From contig CAVWKV010000082.1 in NCBI GenBank assembly GCA_963755265.1, positions 13,203 to 77,202 on the forward strand: a stretch of DNA of 64,000 nt, given 5' to 3'. The position numbers and the translations under genes are program-made. Of the stretch, positions 13,099 to 49,833 are shown piece after piece. The notes under the pieces are model-generated. The model worked only from the letters and a program-made list of their open reading frames with translations, was not told the DNA's origin and ran no database searches. This DNA is from an uncultured Methanomassiliicoccales archaeon (lineage in GTDB: Archaea > Thermoplasmatota > Thermoplasmata > Methanomassiliicoccales > UBA472). Positions within the stretch are counted from its first letter, which is position 1, and each line of letters begins with the position of its first letter.

Positions 13099-13404
13099 TT
13101 AGCTATACTCGCGCCAGGAGGCACCGCATTCGCAGCAGCGGTAGATCTTTGTCTCAGGTTCATCTGCCGCCCTGGTCTGCCTTAGCACCCAGAATGCTTC
13201 GTTGTGCTTGCATTTGGGACACTCGACCTTGGCCTTTGGCAGCATTGGTGCCGAGTTCTCGACTACCATCTGTTCCCTCTCCTTGCCCCTGATGACGCAT
13301 GTGTCAGCCTTGTTGGAAGTCACATCGTACTCTTTCTGGCATCTGTTGCACCAGATCTTGCCGTTCTTCGGCAATGCAAGGGCTTTACACGTTGGACAGA
13401 ACAT
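13099..13404 (-). CDS. tfs: transcription factor S (TFS / RpoM-like)
   Basis: N-terminal CPTC...CNRC ribbon and C-terminal TFIIS-type ribbon CPKC...QTRAADEP...CCEC. Confidence 0.9.
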   Translation of the reverse strand: MFCPTCKALALPKNGKIWCNRCQKEYDVTSNKADTCVIRGKEREQMVVENSAPMLPKAKVECPKCKHNEAFWVLRQTRAADEPETKIYRCCECGASWREYS

Positions 13405-17675: not shown

Positions 17676-18503
17676 TCAAGGCAGCTTGGTCTTATGATAT
17701 TTCAGGCCAATCTGCTCCTGCGATGCTCCGAAGGCCAAGGCCAGCAATTCTGATAGGTAGAGGACCGGAAGACCCTCATTCTGACGCATATCGAACTGAA
17801 CGAAGCAGAATGGGCATGGGGTGAGGATACAGTTGGCGCCGCTCATGCGGAATGTGGACGTGGCGTCCTCCAACATTCTTGTCGAGACCATTTCGTCTAC
17901 ACCGGCGATGCCACCGCCACAGCATTTCGGCCACTTCTCGCCGACGACTGCCTCAGAACCGCACCAGGAGGCTATCTCATCCAGAACCTTTGGGGCGAAG
18001 CTGTCGTCGACCTTGAGCTTCGCGGACGGCCTGACCATATGGCAACCTGGATGGGTGGCGAACCTGAGCCGGTCCTGAGGCAAGGTGGTCAGTGACCTGA
18101 TCTTTTCTTCTCCCGCCTCCTTAATGATCTCCGCGAAATGCTTCACCTTGACGTGTCCGCCGTAATGAAGTCCCATATCCCCGAGGAAAGTGTTCACTTC
18201 GGCCCTGGTCGACGTATCCTCCAGTGCCTGTCTTGACTCTTCCAAGGAGAGATAACAGCCATTGCACAACGAGAGGATGTCACGTCCGCTTCGTTCCGCC
18301 ATTGCCAGCATCCTTGCCGTCGCCATCAGCCACGTGTCCTTCGCCAGCGAACGCAGGCCAATCGGTTCCACGCAGCAAGTAGCCCCCGCCATATTCTCAT
18401 AATCGACTTTTAGCTTGTCCAGGACATAAAGTGAGGATCGTTCTAGGAACGGCAGCCTGGTCGGGATCAGGCAACCCAGGAATAGGAAATACTTGTCATT
18501 CAA
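17676..18503 (-). CDS. hdrB: heterodisulfide reductase subunit B
   Basis: YFLFLGCLIPTRLPFLE...ATCCVEPIG...LCNGCYLSL and a second CCG-domain (KCCGGG). Confidence 0.85.
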   Translation of the reverse strand: MNDKYFLFLGCLIPTRLPFLERSSLYVLDKLKVDYENMAGATCCVEPIGLRSLAKDTWLMATARMLAMAERSGRDILSLCNGCYLSLEESRQALEDTSTRAEVNTFLGDMGLHYGGHVKVKHFAEIIKEAGEEKIRSLTTLPQDRLRFATHPGCHMVRPSAKLKVDDSFAPKVLDEIASWCGSEAVVGEKWPKCCGGGIAGVDEMVSTRMLEDATSTFRMSGANCILTPCPFCFVQFDMRQNEGLPVLYLSELLALAFGASQEQIGLKYHKTKLP

Positions 18504-18975
18504 GCTTGAGGCCCCCTAACCGTGTCCTTCTTACGATCAACGTCAGCTGTTCCATAGTTTCGACCGGAACGGTCAGATCGCCTAATCCCAAATCCTTGCG
18601 CAGCTTTTTTGTCATACCCGTGTTCGGGAAGGACAACCCAGAACGGATGAACAACTTAGCCTCATCGGAGAAGTGCTTTGGTATGTTGCCTCGGGCCGCC
18701 GCCGCCTCTCGTAACAGCGCGATCGTCTCCGCCGGATCTACTCCCATCTGACATCTCTCCGTACAGGAATTGCAGGCGGCGCACAGCCAAAGAGAGCGGT
18801 CACCCAGGTCCAATGTTCCTTGGCTGGCACGGGTCAGGATATCGATAGGACGTATCCCCCCAGCCTTCTCCGAAGGACAGATCCCGGAGCATAGTCCGCA
18901 TTGCTGACACTTCCAGAGCGGCCTTTCGGCAAGTACACTATCAAGATCGGCGGTACCGGCACGGGAGGTTTTCAC
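18496..18975 (-). CDS. hdrC: heterodisulfide reductase subunit C
   Basis: Two ferredoxin-like Cys clusters, CQQCGLCSGICP and CAACNSCTERCQ. Overlaps hdrB by 8 nt. Confidence 0.85.
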   Translation of the reverse strand: MKTSRAGTADLDSVLAERPLWKCQQCGLCSGICPSEKAGGIRPIDILTRASQGTLDLGDRSLWLCAACNSCTERCQMGVDPAETIALLREAAAARGNIPKHFSDEAKLFIRSGLSFPNTGMTKKLRKDLGLGDLTVPVETMEQLTLIVRRTRLGGLKLE

Positions 18976-19610: not shown

Positions 19611-19796
19611 ATGGACATCGAGAAAGAGAAATGCCAGGTATGTGGCGGGCAGGCAACGCAATTCGTTTTCGCCGCCTTCGTGTGCAACAAAGAGGACTGC
19701 GTGGAGAAGGCCAGGCTGGAGCGGGGTGGCCCCGGCGGACATATGAAGAACAAACATTCAGCTCCGATTATTCAGATCGAAGACGAGAGGAATTAG
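19611..19796 (+). CDS. small Cys-containing hypothetical protein
   Basis: 61-aa ORF MDIEKEKCQVCGG...CNKEDC, with GGGAGGGG just upstream of ATG 19611. TAG stop. No family recognised. Confidence 0.3.
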   Translation: MDIEKEKCQVCGGQATQFVFAAFVCNKEDCVEKARLERGGPGGHMKNKHSAPIIQIEDERN

Positions 19797-20938
19797 TCAT
19801 GTTTTCGATCTTCCTTAATGATCCTGGAAGCCGCCAGGACGTGCAGGTCGATGAGCGGGATCCGCTCCCTTCCCTTATACGTGCCATAATCTTTCTGGGC
19901 GCATGACAGATGGACATAGCACTTGGGACAGGCGGTCACTAGTCTTTCCGCTCCGGTCTGCCGCGCCTCACAGAGCCTATCCACCTGCCATTTCTTAGTG
20001 TCGTCATCGCAATTAGCCCAGCAGGGATTTCCACAGCAGGCCGATGACGTCCTTGATCGGGGCATCTCCTTTAGATCTCCGCATGCCTGGACCACTGCCC
20101 TCGGTTCTTCGATGATCTTTGCGAAACGTACCAATTTGCATGGGTAATGGTATGTGAGCTTTTCTTCTCCAGGCAATAACCTCAATTTGCGTTCAAGAAC
20201 GGCCCGTCCGACCAATTCCGAAAGATCGACGATCTCCAGATCAAAACTTTCGATCGTCTTGGGATATATTTCCTGTAGTGTGTGATGGCATTCAGGGCAG
20301 AACGTTATCACTCGTCTGGCACCCGATTCCTTCAACTTCGCGGCGTTGAGCCGTGCCAGTTTCTCAAATGTCTCGTCCTCCCCCAACCAGTAAGAGTCAT
20401 GGCCGCAGCATAGCTCGTCATCCATAAGCTTGGGCCGTATGCCCATGGCATTGAGCAATCTGACGGCGGAACGCGGTATCTCCAGCATATCCTTGGCAAA
20501 GGCGTTGAACAAGTGGTCGAAGAGCGGGGTGCAACCAACGAAAAGTACCGTGTCCGATGATGGGTCCAGTTCCAGGTCCGGGGTCACCCAATCCGACCGA
20601 TGTCCCCTGGTCCTCCCTGCCGCCTCTGTCCTCCTCATCTCCCGGAGAATACCATTATGCGACTGGATCGGGGGGGATCTAGCATTACTGTCTGCCCGGA
20701 TGTCCCTGATGAACTCGTGGAAGCTCACGCCCGATATGCATGCGTCCGAACAAGCGCCACAGGTCATGCAGGACCAGATCTCCCAACGGTCCAGGTCCTT
20801 GCCGGAGGTGAAATCCTCCATCACCCGTCGGGGCGAGAACCGGTTATCCCGCTGGGCGGCCGGGCAAGCATACGAGCATTTCCCGCATTCCACGCATTCG
20901 GAGGCATTAAACTTGTAGGCGGAATCGAGCAGGTTCAT
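19793..20938 (-). CDS. hdrD: HdrD-like Fe-S / CCG-domain oxidoreductase
   Basis: CVECGKCSYACP and CMTCGACSDAC ferredoxin motifs, followed by two CCG-type Cys-rich domains (CCGHDSYW, CPECHH, CCGNPCW, CPKCY). Confidence 0.8.
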   Translation of the reverse strand: MNLLDSAYKFNASECVECGKCSYACPAAQRDNRFSPRRVMEDFTSGKDLDRWEIWSCMTCGACSDACISGVSFHEFIRDIRADSNARSPPIQSHNGILREMRRTEAAGRTRGHRSDWVTPDLELDPSSDTVLFVGCTPLFDHLFNAFAKDMLEIPRSAVRLLNAMGIRPKLMDDELCCGHDSYWLGEDETFEKLARLNAAKLKESGARRVITFCPECHHTLQEIYPKTIESFDLEIVDLSELVGRAVLERKLRLLPGEEKLTYHYPCKLVRFAKIIEEPRAVVQACGDLKEMPRSRTSSACCGNPCWANCDDDTKKWQVDRLCEARQTGAERLVTACPKCYVHLSCAQKDYGTYKGRERIPLIDLHVLAASRIIKEDRKHD

Positions 20939-44150: not shown

Positions 44151-45782
44151 TCAAGTGAACGCCCCCAGCAGCACAGAAGCGAATACCAGGATCGAAATGA
44201 CAGCGTTGACATTGAAGAAGGCCACATTCACCTTGGAGAGATCGGCCGGGCGCACGAGCATATGCTCGAGCACGAACATAGCCCCGATCACTATCACGCC
44301 GATCAGGAATAAGATCCCTAATGGATATATCCAGAACAACGCTGCCAGCGCGGCGAAGCTGATTACATGCAGGGCGGACGAGATCACCAATGCGTTCATT
44401 ATCCCATACCGCGACGGAAGAGACCATAGCCCTTCCTTCCTGTCGAAATCAACATCCAGGCAGGAATACAGGATATCAAACCCGGCAATATAAGTGGTCA
44501 ATGCCAGGCTGAGCACCCATATACCTAACGGGATGGCCCCGGTGACCGCCACGCTGGCCCCCAGCGGCATAAGACCGATGGAAATGCCCAAGATGATGTG
44601 GCTGGCAGCCGTGAATCGTTTGGAGTACGAGTATCCCATGACGATGGCTAACACCGGGAAGGAAAGCCAGAAGCACAGAGAGGAGAGCATGGCAGCGGAC
44701 ATTATGAACACCAAGGCAGACACGATGACGAAGATGAGTCCCTCCCGCATTGTGAGCATCCCGGATGGGATGTGCCTCATTTTTGTCCTCGGATTCTTGG
44801 CGTCGATGGCCGCATCTACGACCCTGTTGAAACCCATTGCCGCAGACCTTGCCCCGACAATCGCCAGTACGATCCAGAACACCATGGCGAAGGTGATTGT
44901 GTTATCCTTTGACAGGAGAACCAGCGCCGCCAATCCGAACGGTAGTGCGAACACGCTGTGGCTAAGTTTGATCATATGGCCATAAGCGGTGATCTTCTTT
45001 AGCGGGGTCAACGAGTCGGTCTCAGCGGTCTCCTCCGGGATGACCTTCCAACGGCAGACCCTCCTCTCCATGAAAGTGAATACCTCGTAGAGCGCGAGCC
45101 CCAGGATGCTCATGGCGATGATCCCTACGAATATCTGGGTATACTGCATATAGGTCCAGGCGTTCATGATCATGTAGCCCAGGCCGGAGGAGCCGGCGAA
45201 CGATTCCACGAAGAACAGGACGGAAATGGAGGTTCCGGTGACGATCCTGAGGGCGGTGAAACTGCTGGGCAACGCCGCTGGAATGATCGCCTCTCTGAGT
45301 ATGTCCTTGTTGGAGGCGTTCATCGAGCGCATCGAATCGATGTATTTGCGGTCCAAGGCGCTCACACCCTCCTTAGTGGCGACCAGTATCTGGAAGAAAA
45401 CGATGACTGTGATGAGGACGATCTTAGACATGTCCCCCAGGCCGAAGAACAGGATCAGCACAGGCAGGAACACCATCTTCGGGATCGGATACGTCAGGAA
45501 GATAAGGGGGCTGAAATAGCTGTCCATCTTCTGGCTATATCCAATGAAGATGCCCAGCGGGAATGCGAGGCACCAGGCGAGCGCGATGCTGATGACTACC
45601 CGGTAAGCACTGATGCTAAAATCGGTCCAGAACGGCTGGGTTTGGACTGTGTTGATGAAGGCTTGTATGGTCGCCTCCGGGCTGGGAAGGATCGGGGAAG
45701 AGACCAGTAACGCAGCCGCCTTCCAGATGACCAGGCAGGCCGCGAGCGAGAGCATGTAACCGAAGGCCCTTTGCCTGTTCAT
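44151..45782 (-). CDS. in-frame fusion: ABC transporter permease (NitT/TauT-type) :: UbiA-family aromatic prenyltransferase
   Basis: Residues 1 to about 250 are a 6-TM permease with an EAA-like loop (DSMRSMNASNKDILREAIIPAALP). After ...ERRVCRWKV and a ~15-aa linker comes a UbiA domain (IKLSHSVFALPF, FNRVVDAAIDAKNPRT, DILYSCLDVDFDRKEG). No stop lies between them. Confidence 0.8.
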   Translation of the reverse strand: MNRQRAFGYMLSLAACLVIWKAAALLVSSPILPSPEATIQAFINTVQTQPFWTDFSISAYRVVISIALAWCLAFPLGIFIGYSQKMDSYFSPLIFLTYPIPKMVFLPVLILFFGLGDMSKIVLITVIVFFQILVATKEGVSALDRKYIDSMRSMNASNKDILREAIIPAALPSSFTALRIVTGTSISVLFFVESFAGSSGLGYMIMNAWTYMQYTQIFVGIIAMSILGLALYEVFTFMERRVCRWKVIPEETAETDSLTPLKKITAYGHMIKLSHSVFALPFGLAALVLLSKDNTITFAMVFWIVLAIVGARSAAMGFNRVVDAAIDAKNPRTKMRHIPSGMLTMREGLIFVIVSALVFIMSAAMLSSLCFWLSFPVLAIVMGYSYSKRFTAASHIILGISIGLMPLGASVAVTGAIPLGIWVLSLALTTYIAGFDILYSCLDVDFDRKEGLWSLPSRYGIMNALVISSALHVISFAALAALFWIYPLGILFLIGVIVIGAMFVLEHMLVRPADLSKVNVAFFNVNAVISILVFASVLLGAFT

Positions 45783-47474: not shown

Positions 47475-47671
47475 GATAATGCTCCGACAATGTCAGCCAA
47501 ATGCCGACTCCGTTTATTACATTTCCCTTATTCCATCCTTGACATTCCGACCTATTGCTCTTGCCTTCAAGGAGTGTGCTGATCATTCCTGTTTATGCAA
47601 GATGTGGAAGCAAATAGTCTATTATACCTGTCGTTGCAATAGATTCCAGCCTAGAATCTACCAGGTATGGT

Positions 47672-48010
47672 GTGCTGATGGTCATGGAAGAATGGGTCCC
47701 GGTACTGGACGAAAAGGTGCTGGATGAGAACTTTGGAGTGTGTGTCGCACCAAAGGGATTGCCCGTGCTCATGATGAAGCGTTACGGGCAGATATTCGCC
47801 CTTTCAAATCGTTGCCCGCACATGGGATGCGCGCTCGCGGGAGGTTCGATGGACGGATATTTATTGACCTGTCCCTGCCATGACTGGCGATTTGACATCA
47901 GAACAGGCATGATGGTCGAAGGGAATAATGGCATAATTCTAAAGTCGTATGAATGGAGAGTAGATTCCGGTAAAATATCGATAAAGGTCGGGGAGATCGA
48001 TAATGCATAA
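47672..48010 (+). CDS. Rieske [2Fe-2S] domain protein 1
   Basis: CPHMGCALAGGSMDGYLLTCPCH (CxH...CxxH). Confidence 0.8.
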   Translation: MLMVMEEWVPVLDEKVLDENFGVCVAPKGLPVLMMKRYGQIFALSNRCPHMGCALAGGSMDGYLLTCPCHDWRFDIRTGMMVEGNNGIILKSYEWRVDSGKISIKVGEIDNA

Positions 48011-48260
48011 GGTCACAGGATATACGTTGAGCTATTGTCCATGGTGCAAGAAGACAAAGAAGTTCTTCCAAGAACATGGAATCCATTTCGACTTCGTTGA
48101 CTATGATCTGCAGGATGAGAAGGAACAGATGCGGATCGAAGAGGAGATGCGAAAGTACAGCAAGGGCGGAATAGCGTTCCCATACGTAGTGATCGATGGG
48201 ACCGTGGTAGTCGGCTGGAACCCGGATCGATACGAAGAACTGCTTAACATCAAGAAATAG
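48003..48260 (+). CDS. glutaredoxin/thioredoxin-fold protein (CPWC)
   Basis: YTLSYCPWCKKTKKFFQEHGIHFDFVDYD...FPYVVIDG. Overlaps the upstream gene by 8 nt. Confidence 0.8.
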   Translation: MHKVTGYTLSYCPWCKKTKKFFQEHGIHFDFVDYDLQDEKEQMRIEEEMRKYSKGGIAFPYVVIDGTVVVGWNPDRYEELLNIKK

Positions 48261-48610
48261 TGACCTGGATGAACGATGAATTGAGGAAGAAGGCGTTGCA
48301 GGACCAGTTCGGCCCGGTCGTCGACGCCCTAGGATTCAAGTTCACGTCAGATAAGGAGCTTGTCTCCGATCTGCTTGACGCCGAGGTCATGCTCATGCAC
48401 CAGACCGGTATTCCGTTCTGTCCTTGCCAGGGTCGCAGCCGCGACCGCAAGAAGGATATGAAGATCGTGTGTCCCTGCATTCCGTTCCATAAGGAACATT
48501 TTGATGCCATGAAGCGATGCTGGTGTGGGCTCTTCGTTCACAAGGACGTTGAGGATCCCAGCAAACTGCGACAGATCCCATTGGAAGAGATCGGGGGATT
48601 GAGGGATTGA
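48260..48610 (+). CDS. ferredoxin:thioredoxin reductase catalytic-subunit-like protein
   Basis: FCPCQGRSRDRKKDMKIVCPCIPFHKE...RCWCGLFV matches the CPC...CPC...CxC.LF pattern of FTR-C. The start could be ATG 48269. Confidence 0.8.
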   Translation: MTWMNDELRKKALQDQFGPVVDALGFKFTSDKELVSDLLDAEVMLMHQTGIPFCPCQGRSRDRKKDMKIVCPCIPFHKEHFDAMKRCWCGLFVHKDVEDPSKLRQIPLEEIGGLRD

Positions 48611-48990
48611 GGATCAAAGTGGCTTCGGTAAGCGATCTCCTTCCCGGGGGCCTGATGATGGTCCAGGCGCAGGGGATCGATATGGTCCTGTGCAACTTCG
48701 ATGGGATGTTCTACGCATTGGAAAGGCGCTGTGGGCACATGAACGCTCCGTTGGAGCAGGGCACCCTGAACGGGTATATCCTGACCTGCCCAATGCATAG
48801 CGCCCAGTTCTCGGTGGTCACGGGGGAAGTGATCAATGCCGCATTATCTCGGGAGCGAACAACGCCGAAGGTCGATGGTCCAGTGGCAGTTCCTGGTTAC
48901 CTCTCGAAATTGATGGAGAAGGTTAAGACCATGGACGTTCGGTCGTTCCCGGTCTCCGTCGATGGCGATAATGTTTTTGTCGATTTGTAA
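48607..48990 (+). CDS. Rieske [2Fe-2S] domain protein 2
   Basis: CGHMNAPLEQGTLNGYILTCPMH. The track start is TTG; GTG 48619 with GAGGAT upstream is an alternative. Confidence 0.8.
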   Translation: MRIKVASVSDLLPGGLMMVQAQGIDMVLCNFDGMFYALERRCGHMNAPLEQGTLNGYILTCPMHSAQFSVVTGEVINAALSRERTTPKVDGPVAVPGYLSKLMEKVKTMDVRSFPVSVDGDNVFVDL

Positions 48991-49029
48991 TTGGACGATT
49001 TTGTTTGTGAGTGTCGGTTATTGGCCCGA

Positions 49030-49833
49030 TTATTTTGAAGGGAATGCTGCCCCTGTCGAGATGTTCAGAATGATCTCCAGGCCGAGCCCGTTGAACCTCT
49101 TTTTCACCGCTGATCTCAGTTCTTCAGCGTTCTTCGAGGTAATGACCGCTGCATCATAGTAGTTGAGGTATTCCTTCATGAATTTGAGGCATGAAGGGTC
49201 ATCGGTCTTGTTTGGGTCCTTGTGGCCGGCTATGGCCATTACCGGTCGGAACGATTCGATCCTTTCCAATGACCGGATCCAATCCCTTCTCTCCTCCGGC
49301 GTCGTGTTGGCTGTCCAGGGATAGGCACCATTGTATACTATATCCCCACATATAACCGTCTTAAGCGAAGGTATCCAGATATACGAGTTGCCATGGTCAT
49401 CACCCTGTGCATTCATATAGACGGGGAACATCTCCCCTTCGAGCTCCAGGACCATTCCTTTCATCGGAGTTGGGATGATGGGGGTCGATGGGATATTATC
49501 CCCATGTACCGGAGCCCACTGCTCGACCTTGCCTTTCCATGTCTTCTTGATGCTCTCCACGGTGACCGGTGAGGCCATAATCTGGATTTCTGGGAAGGCC
49601 TTCACGATTTCCTGAAGGCCGAAATAATGATCCGGATGGTGGTGGGTGATATAGACCATCCTCAGGCTCTTGCCGCTATCTCTGATCATTGCGACAAGCT
49701 TTCCGGCATCGCTAAGAGTGAATTGAGCGTCAATGAGGATCGCGTCCCGTTCGCCGCATACGAGGGTGGAAACGTTCCAAAGGGCATCCGATGATGCCGT
49801 GAACACCTTCAGGTCCTTTCTTGAGATGGTCAT
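49030..49833 (-). CDS. MBL-fold metallo-hydrolase
   Basis: YITHHHPDHYFG motif and a downstream GH...D pattern. Confidence 0.8.
   Translation of the reverse strand: MTISRKDLKVFTASSDALWNVSTLVCGERDAILIDAQFTLSDAGKLVAMIRDSGKSLRMVYITHHHPDHYFGLQEIVKAFPEIQIMASPVTVESIKKTWKGKVEQWAPVHGDNIPSTPIIPTPMKGMVLELEGEMFPVYMNAQGDDHGNSYIWIPSLKTVICGDIVYNGAYPWTANTTPEERRDWIRSLERIESFRPVMAIAGHKDPNKTDDPSCLKFMKEYLNYYDAAVITSKNAEELRSAVKKRFNGLGLEIILNISTGAAFPSK

Follow-up and report, generated by a model that had tools for sequence, protein, structure and literature searches.

In the 64,000-nt window analyzed here, i.e., positions 13,203 to 77,202 of contig CAVWKV010000082.1 (assembly GCA_963755265.1) from an uncultured archaeon of the Methanomassiliicoccales, four small genes encode, in this order, a Rieske protein (Rieske1), a glutaredoxin-like protein (Grx), a homologue of the FTR catalytic subunit (FTRC) and a second Rieske protein (Rieske2). 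This cassette probably constitutes a self-contained cytoplasmic disulfide-reductase relay of the ferredoxin:disulfide reductase (FDR) type, in which electrons would pass from Rieske to FTRC, from FTRC to Grx and from there to target disulfides. Pointing to such a function are the conservation of the four genes as a unit in archaea and bacteria, the placement of FTRC in the FDR branch of its superfamily and naturally occurring fusion proteins in which an FTRC domain is joined to either a glutaredoxin-like or a Rieske domain.

Organization of the four-gene cassette

The region from 47672 to 48990 was analyzed by Pfam profile searches and by direct reading of the translated sequences. The first-pass annotation had interpreted it as an operon in which two Rieske genes flank the genes for a CPWC thioredoxin-fold protein and an FTR-like protein, and this operon reading, the four domain assignments and the motifs are borne out by the Pfam matches and the sequence. 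From the ORF (open reading frame) calls, four co-directional genes on the + strand can be deduced. The first one encodes Rieske1 (47684..48010, +; 108 aa; PF00355, 4.8e-16), a soluble Rieske [2Fe-2S] protein of a class with an extra cysteine pair. Its ORF opens at a GTG at 47672 (47672-48010), the likely start codon being the ATG at 47684 because the resulting 108-aa protein is identical to the database protein P0379. It is followed by the gene for Grx (48003..48260, +; 85 aa; PF00462, 2.4e-13), an NrdH/methanoredoxin-like thiol-disulfide oxidoreductase with a CPWC motif, and by the gene for FTRC (48269..48610, +; 113 aa; PF02943, 2.7e-22). For the latter, the ORF opens at GTG 48260 (48260-48610), and ATG 48269 is the likely start, since the homologues have 113 aa and begin with MNDE or MDDE. 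The last gene encodes Rieske2 (48607..48990, +; 127 aa; PF00355, 6e-15, and PF22543), a soluble Rieske-type ferredoxin, and starts with TTG.

The gene boundaries overlap or abut as described in the first-pass annotation. Grx and Rieske1 genes share 8 nt, with the Grx ATG at 48003 and the Rieske1 stop codon at 48008-48010, whereas the Grx stop codon ends at 48260 and either shares a single base with the GTG at 48260 or leaves a gap of 8 nt to the ATG at 48269. At the third junction, the Rieske2 start codon (TTG 48607) and the FTRC stop codon (TGA 48608-48610) overlap within a TTGA. On inspection of the four translations by eye, an N-terminal hydrophobic or twin-arginine leader was not seen, and all four proteins look soluble and cytoplasmic, an appearance that fits a thiol-reducing role.

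FTRC and its placement in the FDR branch

The PF02943 match of FTRC at 79.2 bits (cut-off 22) establishes membership in the FTR catalytic superfamily. Its cysteines are arranged as CPC-x14-CPC-x13-CWC (C54-P-C56, C71-P-C73, C87-W-C89), with motif and spacing being invariant in 81 of 81 sequences, and all six align in register with the CPC/CPC/CxC motifs of the structures 7pwe, 4tpu and the classical FTR 2puk. We infer that FTRC binds a [4Fe-4S] cluster beside a redox-active disulfide. In sequence searches, 7PWE and the Methanosarcina acetivorans FDR (4TPU) were found to be nearer than classical FTR, with E-values of 2.5e-6 for 4TPU and about 1e-5 for classical FTR.

Structural modeling is in agreement with this ranking. 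Based on an alignment of 115 sequences, the AlphaFold2 (AF2) model of FTRC attained a pLDDT of 81.2 and a pTM of 0.74, while an earlier model from 15 sequences had reached a pLDDT of only 66. A Foldseek search with the 115-sequence model returned solely FDR and FTR structures (7pwe, TM 0.67; 4tpu, 0.65; classical FTR, about 0.55). Hence, the FTR-like active site assumed in the first-pass annotation is supported by both the modeled fold and the aligned cysteines. Judged by its cysteine spacing, by the aromatic side chain within its third CxC and by the structures it most resembles, FTRC belongs to the FDR branch, albeit without the rubredoxin domain; this class assignment had been missed in the first-pass annotation, as had the solved Grx/FDR fusion 7PWE and the presence of two distinct Rieske classes. 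A Pfam domain beyond the catalytic one was not detected in FTRC, and the chain ends directly after it (113-116 aa).

With classical FTR (1DJ7, 2PUK), FTRC shares the PF02943 domain and the six cysteines for the [4Fe-4S] cluster and the adjacent disulfide. In contrast, the CHC motif with its catalytic His and the x16/x8 spacing of the classical enzymes are replaced by CWC and x14/x13, and classical FTR moreover depends on a variable subunit (FTRV), receives its electrons from a plant-type [2Fe-2S] ferredoxin and reduces thioredoxin. The cassette holds no further conserved small ORF that could represent FTRV, the genome itself not having been searched for this subunit, which reportedly occurs in oxygenic phototrophs only (PMC9025218). 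Across the superfamily, the central residue of the last motif is Tyr in 28, Trp in 27, His in 21 and Phe in 19 cases (n = 150 representatives). In the CWC subfamily, an invariant His77 and a nearly invariant His80 are located just past the second CPC (CPCIPFHxxH; window positions 48488-48499, residues in 116-aa numbering). One or both of these residues might act as stand-in for the classical catalytic His.

The glutaredoxin-like protein

With its active site C12-P-W-C15 and the PF00462 match, Grx has the characteristics of a glutaredoxin/NrdH-like redoxin, and C[PL]WC is present in 74 of 79 orthologues. The top NCBIfam match is the YruB family, and the nearest PDB entries are 3nzn (E 2.5e-12) and 5cax (E 5.5e-11), i.e., glutaredoxin/methanoredoxin from Methanosarcina with a CVWC motif. 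Hence, Grx resembles the methanoredoxin/NrdH-like glutaredoxins in size and in its CxWC-type site. Unlike methanoredoxin, which has been described as coenzyme M-dependent, the redoxin studied here is encoded together with an FTR-like reductase and is also found in bacteria lacking coenzyme M.

Two classes of Rieske proteins

Besides matching PF00355, both Rieske proteins possess the CxH...CxxH ligand boxes, conserved in their orthologues, with C48-P-H50-M-G-C53 and C67-P-C69-H70 in Rieske1 (CPHMGC...CPCHDWRF) and C42-G-H44 and C61-P-M-H64 in Rieske2 (CGHMNA...CPMHSAQF). The extra cysteine pair of bc1/b6f-type Rieske proteins (CxHxxC...CxCH) is found in 82 of 83 Rieske1 orthologues, but in none of the 75 orthologues of Rieske2. 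Rieske1 and Rieske2 are two distinct conserved classes and, consequently, non-redundant.

At the sequence level, both proteins are closest to low-potential Rieske ferredoxins of the dioxygenase type. The nearest PDB entries of Rieske1 are the dioxygenase ferredoxins 5bok and 2qpz as well as the small b6f-like Rieske protein 8hn2. Those of Rieske2 are 2qpz, 3dqy and 1vck, leaving residues 85-107 unaligned, and among the NCBIfam families, that of the HcaC-type dioxygenase ferredoxin matches best (2.7e-15). Characteristic of Rieske2 is an insertion of about 23 aa ahead of the last strand. Of the features of high-potential bc1/b6f proteins, Rieske1 has only the cysteine pair, with DW-x-F in place of GS-x-Y, and Rieske2 has neither, so that both are devoid of the Ser and Tyr that donate hydrogen bonds in the CPCHGSxY box (CPCHDWRF in Rieske1 and CPMHSAQF in Rieske2); a leader or membrane anchor was likewise not seen by eye. 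Searching databases with Rieske1 and Rieske2 yielded neither fusion proteins nor informative names among the results, the entries being generically called ‘nitrite reductase/ring-hydroxylating ferredoxin subunit’ or ‘Rieske (2Fe-2S) protein’.

Compared to the ferredoxins of ring-hydroxylating dioxygenase systems (NDO, TodB, BphF, CarAc), which are the best sequence relatives, Rieske1 and Rieske2 have the same size and are likewise soluble single-domain proteins. They differ, however, in the missing linkage to oxygenase and reductase genes, in the strictly anaerobic lifestyle of many hosts, in the cysteine pair of Rieske1 and in the insertion of Rieske2.

Conservation of the cassette in archaea and bacteria

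For surveying the distribution of the cassette, one genome per species from 185,579 species was scanned with only two FTRC peptide patterns, resulting in 383 FTRC relatives. The neighborhoods of the best 80 of these 383 loci, comprising about 12 kb each, were then inspected by phmmer searches, in which the four proteins of the window were compared to all ORFs. The complete arrangement Rieske1-Grx-FTRC-Rieske2, in the same order and on the same strand, was found at 70 of the 80 loci, with four of the others being cut by contig ends and six representing true variants. At least one adjacent Rieske gene is present at all 80 loci, while Rieske matches away from the cassette occur at only two of them. 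The four-gene arrangement is thus far beyond chance, and the co-conservation on which the first-pass annotation had let its proposal depend is clearly established. In addition, the gene junctions measure no more than 20 nt in 90-96% of the loci, and pairwise divergence is correlated among the four proteins (Spearman rho 0.39-0.64). Mean pairwise identity is highest for FTRC (0.65) versus 0.47-0.51 for the other three proteins. The window FTRC is 87-88% identical to that of loci L001-L003, which have the same neighbors, and the window is similar to Methanomassiliicoccales MAGs recovered from soil and peat.

The loci are spread over about four archaeal phyla (Thermoplasmatota, Bathyarchaeia, Halobacteriota, and Asgard) and about ten bacterial phyla. 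Archaeal hosts are Methanomassiliicoccales, Bathyarchaeia, Methanoperedens, Methanolobus, Methanocella and one Asgard archaeon, and bacterial hosts belong to Elusimicrobiota, Nitrospirota, Actinomycetota, Acidobacteriota, Chloroflexota, Bacteroidota, Planctomycetota (Brocadiia), Fibrobacterota and Pseudomonadota (Ferrigenium). At the protein level, matches from Omnitrophota, Methylococcaceae and Thermodesulfobacteriota can be added. Among the carriers are also the cultured strains Methanolobus vulcani B1d, bearing a variant, Candidatus Ferrigenium straubiae KS and Methanocella sp. CWC-04. All-against-all clustering of the flanking ORFs and Pfam analysis of the immediate neighbors at the 80 loci did not reveal any flanking gene common to different phyla, and neither an oxygenase nor an FAD reductase gene is encoded nearby at these loci. 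Evidently, the cassette is self-contained and moves horizontally.

The six variants fall into two types. At three loci from Chloroflexota, Rieske2 is missing; a downstream gene encoding a 486-aa protein, considered as a flavin/2Fe-2S reductase candidate, turned out to be a PMT_2 glycosyltransferase. At the other three loci, all from Methanolobus and including the isolate M. vulcani B1d (L044 1875-4049, L052 4767-6935, and L071 4760-6972), three tandem Rieske1-type genes, all encoding the extra cysteine pair, are followed by Grx, FTRC and, at the position of Rieske2, a gene of the nitroreductase family. Besides, an additional Rieske2-like gene upstream of the cassette (L079 4769-5209), a second, distant FTRC-like ORF downstream (L067 7199-7708) and a 1.6-kb insertion separating Grx and FTRC in a member of the Fibrobacterota (L073 3564-6819) were observed.

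Natural fusion proteins

When concatenated, Grx and FTRC of the window are colinear with 7PWE (E 2e-15), which according to its PDB title is a glutaredoxin/ferredoxin-disulfide-reductase fusion from Desulfotalea psychrophila. The domain order of this protein, Grx then FTRC, is the gene order found here, and it is the best match by sequence as well as by structure. In contrast to the separate proteins of the cassette with CPWC and CWC motifs, 7PWE unites both domains in one chain, its motifs being CGFC and CYC, and a Rieske partner is not evident from the entry. Among 1.84 billion representatives, all scanned with HMMER, there are further Grx-FTRC fusions (P0231 of the CWC type, P0309, and P0360) as well as an FTRC-rubredoxin-like fusion (P0308). 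Moreover, two proteins, P0235 and P0241, are single-ORF fusions of a CWC-type FTRC with a Rieske domain, both Pfam domains matching at 1e-15 to 1e-21. P0235 was recovered in two independent assemblies of one seawater sample, where its gene is located directly 3′ of a Grx-like gene. The fused Rieske domains do not bear the extra cysteines (CRHAFG...CPWHGW). The layout of these FTRC-Rieske fusions parallels the FTRC-rubredoxin arrangement of 4TPU and P0308, and they are the strongest evidence for direct communication between a Rieske centre and the cluster of the FTR-like protein, as is presumed for the rubredoxin domain in FDR.

Five other database sequences (P0232, P0242, P0237, P0246, and P0261), apparent FTRC fusions with Rieske2-like or Grx-like sequence, were discarded, as they look like frameshifted read-through chimeras. 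Marine sequences hold a two-gene variant (L081 82-1067 and L082 173-1092), in which the gene for a Grx-like protein with an SPYC site, i.e., having lost the first Cys, overlaps the start of the FTRC(CWC)-Rieske ORF. A Rieske1 gene is not present upstream in L081 and L082.

Flanking regions and other features of the window

Upstream of the cassette, a divergent intergenic region (47475..47683) is flanked by a gene on the − strand encoding an NMT1-like binding protein. Within this region, a TATA-like AT-rich element, tattatac (47620-47627), is located about 57 nt 5′ of the ATG at 47684, and we infer from its sequence that it could be part of the operon promoter. A scan for sigma-70 promoters does not apply to an archaeal host and gave counts not exceeding those in shuffled sequence. 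At the 3′ end of the operon (48991..49030, +), the sequence contains tracts rich in T (gattttgtttg) as well as a weak hairpin with a T-run behind it; the number of sites resembling this terminator-like one at 49013-49030 is, however, no higher than in shuffled sequence. The converging downstream gene (49030-49833, −) encodes a protein of the metallo-beta-lactamase fold (PF00753).

At the loci from other organisms, lineage-specific neighbors are found. In Actinomycetota/Thermoleophilia, a nitroreductase-family flavoprotein gene is located directly upstream of the cassette (L046, L054, L057, L061, L065, L066, and L077) and an Fe/Mn superoxide dismutase gene directly downstream (L032, L049, L050, L057, L065, L066, and L077), in each case on the same strand. 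The arrangement is suggestive of an oxidative-stress operon, with the flavoprotein as a candidate for electron input. Together with the nitroreductase-family gene following FTRC in Methanolobus, this is a weak, lineage-limited hint at flavoprotein input and a role in oxidative stress. The synteny in Elusimicrobia is likewise lineage-specific and comprises genes of the DAGK/YegS family and for Cys-rich repeats.

Elsewhere in the window, a 543-aa ORF (44151-45782, −) represents an unusual fusion, as by eye its N-terminal half resembles an ABC-transporter permease and its C-terminal half a UbiA-type prenyltransferase. The same operon comprises an ABC ATPase-like ORF and the gene for an NMT1-like binding protein. 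Furthermore, Cys-rich ORFs at 17676-18975 (−) and 19793-20938 (−) appear, also by eye, like the heterodisulfide-reductase subunits HdrB/HdrC and would fit a Methanomassiliicoccales-type energy metabolism.

The proposed electron relay

The analysis shows which genes make up the cassette, their motifs and fold class, their conservation as a unit and the natural fusions; the cofactors, the contacts among the proteins and the reductive direction of electron flow are deduced from these in the relay proposed here. A donor encoded outside the cassette would reduce the [2Fe-2S] cluster of a Rieske protein, which would then deliver single electrons to FTRC. In the latter, a [4Fe-4S] cluster, presumably ligated by Cys54, Cys71, Cys73 and Cys87, would adjoin the disulfide between Cys56 and Cys89, and two one-electron inputs would convert this disulfide to the dithiol. 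These roles of the cysteines are proposed because of the motif-by-motif alignment with FTR and the established FTR mechanism. By thiol-disulfide exchange, the FTRC dithiol could subsequently reduce the CPWC disulfide of Grx, and Grx in turn cellular disulfides. Free-standing Rieske proteins would thus replace the fused rubredoxin of FDR and the ferredoxin of classical FTR. The simplest roles for two Rieske proteins would be that one is proximal to the enzyme and the other functions as shuttle, or that they jointly hold the two electrons required per disulfide.

The system is thereby closely reminiscent of the M. acetivorans FDR (4TPU), which has the cysteine spacing CPC-x14-CPC-x12/13-CxC, an aromatic side chain at the position of the classical His, a small Grx/NrdH-like redoxin partner and a non-ferredoxin one-electron metal centre beside the catalytic domain. 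In FDR, however, a C-terminal rubredoxin-like domain is fused and the last motif is CYC, whereas two separate Rieske proteins and CWC are found here. For FDR, reduction of an NrdH-like redoxin serving class III ribonucleotide reductase as well as of the M. acetivorans thioredoxin has been reported. A ribonucleotide reductase gene context, in contrast, is not seen for the cassette.

Several points weigh against the reductive relay. First, the His that serves catalysis in CHC of classical FTR is exchanged for Trp in FTRC. Second, neither an electron donor nor a target gene is part of the cassette. Third, the Rieske domains of P0235 and P0241 score alike against the Rieske1 and Rieske2 profiles, without clear orthology, so that the fusions back the principle of Rieske-FTRC coupling but do not assign a role to a specific paralogue. 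Fourth, Grx/NrdH dithiols, with potentials of about −200 to −250 mV, are more reducing than dioxygenase-type Rieske ferredoxins (about −150 mV), and the FTR disulfide at about −320 mV is far more so. Judging from these textbook values, forward flow would be only marginally favorable, unless the potentials are shifted or most of the Rieske pool is kept reduced. Finally, the retention of two Rieske classes and the bc1-like cysteine pair of Rieske1 are left unexplained by the reductive model. These gaps leave room for reverse electron flow, for a function of Rieske1 as client or switch and for electron splitting.

The energetic problem had already been raised in the first-pass annotation, though in too strong terms, as Rieske centres were assumed to have much higher potentials than the usual FTR donors. 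This holds only in part for proteins whose nearest relatives are of the dioxygenase type and which lack the Ser and Tyr donors. In addition, the fused rubredoxin domain of FDR, an accepted precedent, is itself not a low-potential carrier. Considering the low-potential Rieske relatives and the rubredoxin precedent, the pairing is less paradoxical than first stated, but the paradox is not gone.

Alternative functions

Following the potentials, the system could operate as a thiol:Rieske oxidoreductase, with the dithiol of Grx, or a small thiol via Grx, being oxidized by FTRC and electrons leaving singly via Rieske, thus serving disulfide formation or the disposal of thiol electrons. Thiol to Rieske is the textbook-downhill direction, above all for Rieske1, which possesses the cysteine pair and resembles 8hn2, and numerous hosts, Ferrigenium and Methylococcaceae among them, come from peat, groundwater, soil or other habitats in which oxic and anoxic zones meet. 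On the other hand, the proteins look cytoplasmic, and forming disulfides in the cytoplasm would be of no obvious use to the many strictly anaerobic hosts. In none of the lineages of the 80 loci is an oxidase or other acceptor linked to the cassette. Moreover, all characterized FTR and FDR enzymes are reported to be reductive, and the missing Ser and Tyr are just the residues that would raise the Rieske potentials. Taken together, reverse flow is rather unlikely.

A more elaborate function would make direct use of the two different Rieske centres. Rieske1 with its bc1-like cysteine pair probably has the higher and the ferredoxin-like Rieske2 the lower potential, as far as can be deduced from their sequences. 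Conceivably, though with low probability, both centres split or merge the electrons of a dithiol via a one-electron intermediate stabilized by the [4Fe-4S] cluster, i.e., in a bifurcating or confurcating manner, or the system is a thiol-oxidizing device.

It is improbable, too, that the Rieske proteins are clients, such that FTRC and Grx reduce or switch the cluster-adjacent cysteine pair of Rieske1 for tuning or protecting its cluster in the sense of a sensor or repair unit. Restriction of the extra cysteines to Rieske1, the position of its gene directly 5′ of and overlapping the Grx gene and the superoxide dismutase neighbors in some lineages would suit this role, whereas the lack of these cysteines in the fused Rieske domains is indicative of electron transfer and not of Rieske being a substrate. 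In addition, FTRC would still require a donor, for which the cassette offers only the Rieske proteins themselves as candidate carriers. That the genes are merely co-located and functionally independent, or form a module for Fe-S or metal trafficking, is highly improbable despite the generic database annotations, as order, strand and overlapping junctions are kept across two domains of life, fusion proteins exist and the invariant CxxC, CPC/CPC/CWC and CxH/CxxH motifs fit working redox centres.

Implications for disulfide reduction outside phototrophs

FTR-like [4Fe-4S] disulfide reductases are widespread outside phototrophs. To our knowledge, however, only the rubredoxin-fused FDR has been studied there. 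A description of FTR or FDR with Rieske partners was not found in the searchable literature, which does not include the survey by Balsera (2013), where a prior mention is possible. The single components and the logic of electron transfer from FTRC to Grx are already known. What appears to be undescribed is the pairing with Rieske proteins, the presence of two of them and the wide conservation of the set. With about 50 kDa in total for the four proteins and with cultured carriers at hand, the module is directly testable. Within the cassette, the Rieske proteins are the sole candidate electron carriers. If the proposed reductive relay is correct, it would represent a thioredoxin-reductase-like system whose catalytic step proceeds without ferredoxin or an NADPH-dependent flavoenzyme, and it would provide the first assigned role for the soluble Rieske proteins of anaerobes.

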